A DNA stretch of 64,000 nt from Leucoraja ocellata (lineage: Eukaryota). The first letter of the stretch is position 1; every line of letters begins with the position of its first letter. Under the pieces are notes generated by a model that was not told the origin of the DNA, did no database searches, and was given only the letters and a program-made list of their open reading frames with translations. Position numbers and translations under genes: made by a program. Shown here in pieces: positions 1 through 37,392 of the stretch. The DNA is taken from positions 1,240,001 through 1,304,000 of the forward strand of contig JAWMAR010000471.1 in the NCBI GenBank assembly GCA_036785375.1, given 5' to 3'.

Positions 1-573
1 GTAGAAGGACGTGGCCCAGTGAAGCAAAAAAAACAAAACAACTCTTGATACATAAAGGGCAAAGCATTTATCCCGGGTTGTGTAAATTCCACTTAAAATA
101 TGACCTTTCAGTTGTTGAACACAGAAGGCTGTGGAGGCCAAGTCAGGGGGAAAATAAGGCAGCGATAGATATATTTTTGATTAGTCGAAGCGTCGGAGGT
201 TTTGACATTGCGGAGAAGGCAGGAGAATGGGGTTCGGAGGGTGACATTGTTCAGCCATTATTGAAAGGCTGAGTGGACCTGATGGGCCGAATGGCCTAAT
301 TACACCGTTGAAACTTGACTATATCCAGGAAAGGATACACTTCAGTCAAGCTGTGGGGAGAATGACTAGTTCTATTGTTTTAACGCCAAGAACCAATTAC
401 AAAATGCTAGAGAACCGACAAAGGTAATTTGTCTCATTCACCGGATCCCGACTCACTGAATCAGCTCCACTATTATCCCGTGCTCGCTTTGATTGTTCCC
501 ACAGCCTGGAATATTTCCAATTTCACTTTCATAATCAGAGTTTGACCTCGCGGATATTCGTCAGTGATTTTCT

Positions 574-955
574 TCACGGTGGCACAACGGTAACGGCGGA
601 GGTGCTGCCTAACAGCGCGTTTAGCACCAGAGACCCGAGTCCGATCCAGACTCCGGGTGTTGTTGGTACGGAGTTTGTATGTTCTCCACATAATCTGTGT
701 GGGTTTTCTCCGAGATCTAGGGTTTCTTCCCACACTCCAAATATGGACAGTTTTGAAGGGTTATTGGCGCTCTATAAATGTAAATATTCCATCGTGTGTG
801 TAGGATAGTGTTAATGTGCGGGGATTGCAGGGAGGCGCGGACTTGGTGGGCCGAAGGGCCCGTTTCCGCGCTGTGTCCATAAACTAAACTAAACTGAACT
901 GAACTAATGTAAACTAAACCAAACTATACTAAAGTAAACTAACCTAAACGAAATT
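574..955 (+). mobile_element. tRNA-derived SINE (HE1/V-SINE-like)
   Basis: tRNA-like head cacggtggcacaacgg..., central block gagtttgtatgttctcc...gtgggttttctcc, CR1-like 3' end gggccgaagggcccgtttcc and (ctaaa)n tail; other copies occur in the window. Confidence 0.8.
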
Positions 956-1121
956 AAATCTCCACTCGTCGAGGGAACAATTAAAGGATCCATAAATAAC
1001 GTTTCCATATATTTTGCAAAATGTGATGAACTACCGGAGACGGTAACTAGTTTCTGTGTGTGTCACAGTCTCCAACAGTCAATGTTAAAACAATAACTAT
1101 TCCACTGTTATTTTTCCACAG

Positions 1122-1427
1122 ATTCGATGTCCGCGGTTTCCCAGAGTACGCCTCAACAATCCTCTCTTTCTGGTGACACTGCCACCCTTAACTGCGTATA
1201 TTCCGGAATCTGCTCGTACACAGTACACTGGTACCGACAGTTCCCAGGGCAGGCTCTGGAATTCCTGCTCCAAAGACACATTTCAGGAAAGCAAGATGAG
1301 GAAGCGGCTGCCGAAGGTCGTATTTCTGGTTCTCTCGATCCTGCCCAGAAAATCAGTCAGTTAACGCTCTCTGAGGTTCTGCCGAGCGACGAGGCTGTGT
1401 ATTACTGTGGGATGAGTCCGCGCATCG
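1122..1427 (+). CDS. TCR V exon (V1), TCR-delta type; probable NAR-TCR supporting V
   Basis: Acceptor tttttccacag ends at 1121, phase 1. Open frame (D)SMSAVSQSTP...TATLNCVYSGICSYTVHWYRQFPGQ...DEAVYYCGMSPRI with canonical Cys/Trp/Cys plus an extra CDR1 Cys, followed by a 23-RSS. Confidence 0.92.
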
Positions 1428-1466
1428 CACAGTGGCACAGCGCAGTGAGATAGCTGTACCAAAACC
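1428..1466 (+). promoter_or_regulatory. 23-RSS of V1
   Basis: Heptamer CACAGTG 1428-1434, 23-nt spacer, nonamer ACCAAAACC 1458-1466 (one mismatch to ACAAAAACC). Confidence 0.95.
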
Positions 1467-21500: not shown

Positions 21501-21782
21501 ACTGGAGCATCCAGGACTCGGTGGCACAGTCGGTCTCTGAAATGACGTTCGCAGTTAAAGATGACATCGCGCTAGAATGCTCCTTTGGAACGGCAGGGAC
21601 AATCCTGAATGTTTATTGGTACAGACAGCGACGTGGGCGGCAGCCAGTGATCCTGTTTCGGATTACGGCAAGGATACTAAAGAGAAATGGGGATCTCACA
21701 GACCGATTCTCTTCCACGTACAATAAGGCTGCAAAAACCTTATTAGGTTAATCATCCGCGCGTCCGAGATTACCGACTCCGC
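21501..21782 (+). pseudogene. TCR alpha/delta V pseudogene (V2)
   Basis: Acceptor ttactgttag. (D)WSIQDSVAQ...ALECSF...VYWYRQ...RFSSTYNKAAKT, frameshift near 21740, then RLIIRASEITDSA; the YYC motif is missing. Confidence 0.9.
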
Positions 21783-21821
21783 CACGTTGCCGAAGAAACA
21801 CGGCGGACACGCACAAAAACA
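21783..21821 (+). promoter_or_regulatory. 23-RSS of V2
   Basis: CACGTTG 21783-21789, exactly 23 nt, ACAAAAACA 21813-21821. Confidence 0.8.
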
Positions 21822-37043: not shown

Positions 37044-37353
37044 GGCAGGGCGCTGGGGATTCGGTCACTCAGAGCCAGTCTTCGCTGAGACATGGAAAAG
37101 ATGATTTGGTGAAACTAACCTGTAACTACAATACTACCGCGTCCGCCTATTGTTTATATTGGTACCGACAGATTGCGGCGGAGAATCCTGAGATGATTGT
37201 GCTGAAACAGTCTTGGGACCAACAGGAAGAACGAGGAGACATATTAGAGAACCGTTTCTCTGCGGATCTCAAGACTGCGACTTCAATTGTGCATTTAACT
37301 ATTTGGGGTCTCCAGCTGACAGACTCTGCTGTGTATTACTGCGCCCTGAGTTC
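37044..37353 (+). CDS. TCR delta/alpha V exon (V4), intact paralogue of V3
   Basis: Acceptor ccatttcacag. (G)QGAGDSVTQ...VKLTCNY...AYCLYWYRQ...LTDSAVYYCALS; 77 of 102 aa identical to V3 by hand count. Confidence 0.95.
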
Positions 37354-37392
37354 CACAATGATCGAAAGCAGTCTCTTCGTAATGCAAAAACT
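37354..37392 (+). promoter_or_regulatory. 23-RSS of V4
   Basis: CACAATG 37354-37360, 23 nt, GCAAAAACT 37384-37392. Confidence 0.92.

Follow-up and report, generated by a model that had tools for sequence, protein, structure and literature searches.

The closest described counterpart of the locus analysed here is the NAR-TCR of nurse shark and elephant shark. As set out in PMC1845163, it combines a NAR V, which has a leader, a cysteine in FR1 (the a-b loop) and no canonical tryptophan, with a supporting V that is leaderless and carries a cysteine in CDR1, the two belonging to separate V(D)J systems of the TCR alpha/delta locus; the skate locus shares these traits and probably lies in a TCR alpha/delta locus as well. 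It differs from NAR-TCR in that two NAR cassettes precede the one supporting V, the nearer without a leader, and in that 6 of the 16 cassettes on the contig carry partial joins in genomic DNA. According to the model given in PMC6795676, PMC3457774 and PMC5931798, a chain ordered NAR V, supporting V and C-delta results from two rounds of V(D)J joining followed by one splice. NAR-TCR is said in PMC3149040 to be present in every living cartilaginous fish, and Table S1 of PMC12227049 gives the label NARTCRV three times in stingray, a batoid; the presence of NAR-TCR in a batoid is therefore not new, and V1, the V segment under study, by itself amounts to one more member, from a skate, of a known family. 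That table has no skate sheet; it attaches its great white and stingray NARTCR labels to automated models, among them the great white model LOC121270138 with which V1 groups, and does not analyse RSSs, junctions or leaders. One great white label implies tandem, germline-joined NAR Vs.

Two other receptors bear comparison. The skate NAR Vs form the sister clade of an IgNAR-like V, VNARs are the closest folds of the one that was modelled, and the NAR cassettes share with IgNAR a cluster-type V-D-J organization and an IgH-like spacer logic; unlike IgNAR, the NAR cassettes have one D, no canonical tryptophan and an FR1 cysteine, and a supporting TCR V stands downstream of them where IgNAR has its C exons. 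Marsupial and monotreme TCR-mu shares the three extracellular domains and the antibody-like front V, with a germline-joined V in marsupials, and has an independent origin according to PMC3457774. In TCR-mu, however, the supporting V is the joined one, whereas in the skate it is the front NAR cassette that is partly joined and the supporting V that is split.

The window, i.e. the whole stretch of 64,000 nucleotides that was analysed, corresponds to C471:1240001-1304000, so that a window position equals the C471 position minus 1,240,000. V1 lies on the forward strand near its start. A pyrimidine tract and AG (1098..1121, AG at 1120-1121) form a phase-1 splice acceptor, from which an exon (1122..1427) opens in phase 1 as a V of 101 amino acids with both canonical cysteines, the canonical tryptophan and the CDR1 CVYSGICSYTVHW. 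The non-canonical CDR1 cysteine (1211..1213) stands six residues past the first canonical one; at this position a cysteine was found in 70 of 81 related records and another residue in 2, the motif being unmatched in the other 9. The exon is followed by a 23-RSS (1428..1466) with a perfect heptamer and one mismatch in the nonamer; the window contains two sites of this type, where 100 shuffles give an expectation of 0.03. The intact V, strong acceptor, CDR1 cysteine and near-consensus RSS described in an earlier note on this DNA were thus all confirmed from the sequence. Its assignment to a batoid fits as well: the closest named relatives of V1 are skate proteins of Amblyraja (86-91%) and Leucoraja (88%), so the genome is likely that of a skate. 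The dN/dS of V1 was below 1 against five of six paralogs, with few differences.

The same note had reported no leader for V1 in positions 1-1121 and a leader exon for each of V2, V3 and V4, with the caveat that an ordinary V1 leader might lie beyond the window. Positions 1..1121 are the 3' part of the predicted intron that runs on the forward strand from the donor of the nearest upstream NAR J to V1 (C471:1238062-1241121), and a scan for hydrophobic ATG...GT phase-1 exons across the 3,059 nt between that donor and the V1 acceptor returned no candidate, so the caveat was not borne out. Applied as a control, the scan recovered the leaders of V2, V3 and V4, with good donors 1.2, 1.83 and 2.0 kb upstream of their V exons. 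V4 also has an extra cysteine near CDR1 and yet possesses a leader, which indicates that it is the position of the cysteine that counts and not its mere presence. In V4 (window 37044-37392), which groups with conventional Vs, this residue stands three positions ahead of the conserved tryptophan. V2 (window 21502-21821) is a pseudogene, with a frameshift near its end and no YYC ahead of a degenerate 23-RSS.

Phylogeny, one of the checks proposed in the earlier note, placed V1 within a clade of supporting Vs with support of 98/91 in a tree of 75 rows, whose bootstrap had not fully settled, and of 96/99 in a tree of 32 rows, comprising 31 of those 75, chosen after the larger tree, and one IgNAR-like V. 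The references for supporting Vs were great white models labelled in a published table and records without names; members of the clade are LOC121270138 of great white, to which Table S1 of PMC12227049 gives the label NARTCRdV, and records P0059, P0061 and P0083, which continue into a J and C region. V2, the Vs at C471:1314.8k, 1353.2k and 1359.2k and those of C4836 were missed by the V-extraction pattern and are absent from the trees. The competing interpretation, in which V1 is a conventional V-alpha/delta with its leader farther upstream, draws on the 1.2-2.0 kb leader introns seen elsewhere in the window and on V4, which shows that a conventional V can hold an extra cysteine. Against it, the leader-free stretch ends at a NAR J donor, close paralogs of V1 sit behind NAR cassettes, and forcing V1 into one clade with 8 conventional Vs, the grouping that the earlier note had named as refuting its proposal, was rejected in the 32-row tree (p-AU 0.0007). 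We regard a conventional V1 as extremely improbable: V1 is, almost certainly, a leaderless NAR-TCR supporting V-delta.

Inspection of the upstream sequence revealed NAR-type V, D and J segments with RSSs. The NAR-TCR V-D-J cassette that the earlier note had placed just upstream of the window occupies C471:1236741-1238061, with its J donor at 1238062, 3,060 nt ahead of the V1 acceptor, and a second cassette lies at C471:1232221-1233533; no run of N, and hence no assembly gap, occurs from C471:1189746 to V1. Both cassettes are built as a leader, a V with a 22-spaced RSS, a D flanked by 13- and 12-spaced RSSs in that order, a J preceded by a 23-RSS, and a GT donor. In the distal cassette the leader (C471:1232221-1232263) is intact and followed by the V and its RSS (1232418-1232742; heptamer at 1232705, with one mismatch), the D (1233097-1233112) and a J ending at 1233533 with its donor at 1233534. 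The proximal cassette comprises a broken leader (C471:1236741-1236772), the V with its RSS (1236927-1237257; heptamer at 1237220), the D (1237611-1237626) and the 23-RSS with the J (1237966-1238061). V1, both NAR Vs, both Ds and both Js with their RSSs are intact, and only the distal cassette encodes a typical leader peptide. The proximal leader has suffered an 11-nt deletion, has no GT donor and stands alone among 17 leader copies in its short span; rescue through an alternative donor was considered and discarded on inspection, as no GT within the leader gives phase 1. A repeat of about 170 bp (C471:1236486-1236657) is inserted 84 nt ahead of its ATG.

The distal cassette has no supporting V of its own. 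Its J is followed by some 500 nt matching the J intron of sibling cassettes, then only by repeats and then by the proximal promoter, an arrangement which suggests that its supporting V was lost by deletion. Both Js join V1 in frame, giving the TVTA-D-S junction that is also seen in two-V records of other species. The distal J is likewise in frame, in phase 1, with the proximal V. The leader introns of most NAR cassettes of the array (e.g. at C471:1236797, 1217179 and 1112008) contain a conserved perfect RSS heptamer with a 12-spaced nonamer bearing three mismatches.

The identity of the NAR Vs was examined through alignments, trees and a structural prediction. The FR1 cysteine was present and the canonical tryptophan absent in all eight aligned NAR Vs, and the proximal V has no CDR1 cysteine. 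In the 32-row tree the cassette Vs form a clade with NAR Vs of great white, sawfish, thorny skate and others, which is sister (99/97) to the IgNAR-like V of a V-D-D-J cluster in the same genome. In that cluster (C5276:27250-28600) two Ds and then a J were detected behind the IgNAR-like V, and no C exons were found on the rest of its contig. The predicted structure of the distal V had a mean pLDDT of 76, with the first 16 residues poor, and its top four fold matches in the PDB were all VNARs, with modest E-values of about 1e-4; the distal V is accordingly predicted, at those modest E-values, to fold like a VNAR. When the PDB was searched with the sequence of the proximal V, most of the matches were multi-domain scFv entries. 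The distal V has extra cysteines in CDR1 and at the start of CDR3, a pair, with a putative bond, that recalls type II VNAR. About 20 NAR-like V fragments with in-frame stops were observed on C10, C7, C2063, C2073 and C3594, and are likely IgNAR-related pseudogenes.

The distal V also shows an unusual pattern of divergence. Its exon is 85-86% identical to the three closest paralogs, against 92-96% for most flanking segments and 83% for one intron; 40 of 284 exon sites differ as compared with 47 of 798 in the flanks (p 4e-5), and the exon changes are mostly nonsynonymous. Nonsynonymous and synonymous differences from these paralogs numbered 36/3, 37/2 and 38/5 (Fisher p 0.013, 0.002 and 0.051, respectively), and dN/dS exceeded 1 in 8 of 8 pairwise comparisons; these comparisons were made in pairs and are not independent of one another, and one of the three p values lies above 0.05. 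The excess of amino-acid change suggests use rather than decay of the distal V, and gene conversion from an unsampled donor could mimic it.

Taken with the NAR-TCR model, these observations make it probable that V1 serves as the central domain of a TCR-delta chain formed by two rearrangements, a normal two-V product whose front domain would come from the farther, intact cassette. The latter is the likely partner because the nearer leader is broken, the farther one is intact and the farther V bears the excess of amino-acid change. Under the model, RAG would join the NAR V, D and J (22/23 to 12/13, and 12 to 23) and would separately join V1 to D-delta and J-delta through the V1 23-RSS, the NAR J would splice in phase 1 onto V1, and the NAR FR1 cysteine would bond with the V1 CDR1 cysteine, both residues being present in the sequence. 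In the unit upstream of V1, transcription would start at the distal leader, since the proximal cassette is unable to supply one. The proximal V retains an intact acceptor and, if spliced in unrearranged, reads to a stop at C471:1237259; it must therefore be skipped, deleted by cross-cassette joining, or itself rearranged into a three-V chain. For a two-V product its exon would be skipped or, more probably, lost when the distal V recombines with the proximal D, or the distal D with the proximal J. Both of these cross-cassette joins are permitted by the RSS spacers, so that the pair would act as a small translocon.

Two other readings accept V1 as a true supporting V and differ in what its unit makes. 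The unit could be dead or nearly so, its leader lost, its promoter carrying a repeat and its distal transcripts trapped by the proximal V acceptor. The broken proximal leader and the promoter insertion are in keeping with this, as are other damaged units in the array, namely supporting Vs with a frameshift at C471:1063.6k and 1149.4k, a leader interrupted by a stop at 1078.2k and a D-J deletion at 1127.4k, and a proximal V neither deleted nor rearranged could indeed capture the distal J. Against this, every V, D, J and RSS of the unit is intact, the exon of the distal V has diverged further than its flanks and mostly at nonsynonymous sites, which decay does not predict, and the RSS spacers would allow the proximal V to be deleted; we hold a dead unit to be unlikely. 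The six RNA or possible-RNA runs inspected, of unknown tissue, covered repeats and essentially not exons and provide no evidence either way (four were mapped on the two cassettes without V1, and two possible-RNA runs on both cassettes and V1); two further runs of unknown kind covered the unit formed by the cassettes and V1.

Alternatively, the main product could be a four-domain, triply rearranged chain consisting of the distal NAR VDJ, the proximal NAR VDJ as a leaderless, supporting-V-like domain, the rearranged V1 and C-delta. Such a chain is possible in that the distal J is in phase with the proximal V, and the proximal cassette has lost its leader only, keeping V, D, J and RSSs. Automated models of great white (P0026) and horn shark (P0025) likewise place tandem NAR Vs ahead of one supporting V, and a great white gene is labelled 'NARTCR V(gj)V(gi)V' (Table S1 of PMC12227049), a label tied to P0026 by species and description only. 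These tandem models are predictions, however, and the chain would demand three in-frame rearrangements and a proximal V that lacks the CDR1 cysteine for pairing with the distal FR1 cysteine, while loss of the distal supporting V accounts for the short intron start and the repeats between the cassettes with no need for selection. We consider it improbable as the main product. The broader proposal, that loss of the proximal leader created a second supporting-type exon and with it a four-domain TCR-delta chain (NAR V, NAR V, V1 and C-delta) in the skate, and that the tandem cassettes of great white and horn shark act likewise, is speculative and doubtful. The tandem unit makes it possible to test directly if cross-recombination takes place between cluster-type cassettes that lie 4.5 kb apart, and if a receptor with three Vs can form.

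The two cassettes belong to an array of 16 NAR Vs on C471, six of which are in cassettes partly joined at or near the RSS borders. V and D are joined at 924.8k, 1004.7k and 1020.2k, where a 12-RSS and a split J follow, and D and J at 400.4k, 1031.3k and 1044.3k; among the remaining ten cassettes, one is cut by a gap and one is without D and J by deletion. C2754 adds one V-D joined copy (30.4k) and two D-J joined copies (4.5k and 19.1k); C2754 may be a simple allele of C471, but long blocks of the two match at only 96-98%. In the 1031k family neither the D nor the start of the J has been shortened, and two bases separate them; in one copy these bases are the palindrome of the D end. Untrimmed ends and palindromic addition fit the pattern of a RAG coding joint. 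Copies sharing joints differ by 2-4%, which argues for joining in the germline followed by duplication rather than for somatic DNA. A thorny skate model (P0009) that shares a clade with the 1004k V continues to read through a heptamer, a hint that the 1004k V-D join is recent. The coding 5' ends of the NAR Js vary in length with the heptamer kept, the shortest being that of the distal cassette, variation that could stem from indels or from open-and-shut events of RAG.

Split copies thus stand next to copies in either half-joined state, V-D or D-J, at a TCR locus. The ends of the joined copies fall on RSS borders or close to them, and one junction can be read as a palindromic addition of 2 nt; the partial joins therefore likely arose by RAG acting on this TCR locus in the germline, and the duplicated joined copies allow the joining event to be dated. 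The only hint of germline-joined NAR cassettes at a TCR locus that we found in print is the great white table label, and the supplement of PMC3964593 gave no match. The literature searched contained no description of the array or structure of a skate NAR-TCR, and key earlier papers, a 2019 paper on the nurse shark TCR-delta locus among them, may already describe tandem or joined cassettes.

In the assembly, V1 and the other parts of its presumed TCR alpha/delta locus are separated: the D-deltas stand on the opposite strand beyond gaps and C-delta on a separate contig. Two D-deltas flanked by 12- and 23-RSSs were located at C471:1365.8k and 1366.95k, about 125 kb from V1 and beyond gaps of 200 N. 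A first search for C-delta gave no match, and a later transmembrane query found it on the unplaced contig C5524 together with four near-identical Js. Within C471:1362147-1503000, the D-delta, J-alpha and C-alpha blocks flip strand across the 200-N gaps, and this region and C5524 are likely mis-oriented scaffold pieces. On the minus strand at C471:1375300-1375700, upstream of D-delta in the same gap-free block, lies an IgH-like V with a degenerate 23-spaced RSS; it is similar to the Ig-like Vs that Table S1 of PMC12227049 labels as associated with TCR-delta. Farther along, C471:1457000-1490500 holds a series of about 35-40 J-alpha segments that has expanded recently and whose flanks and ends are nearly identical.
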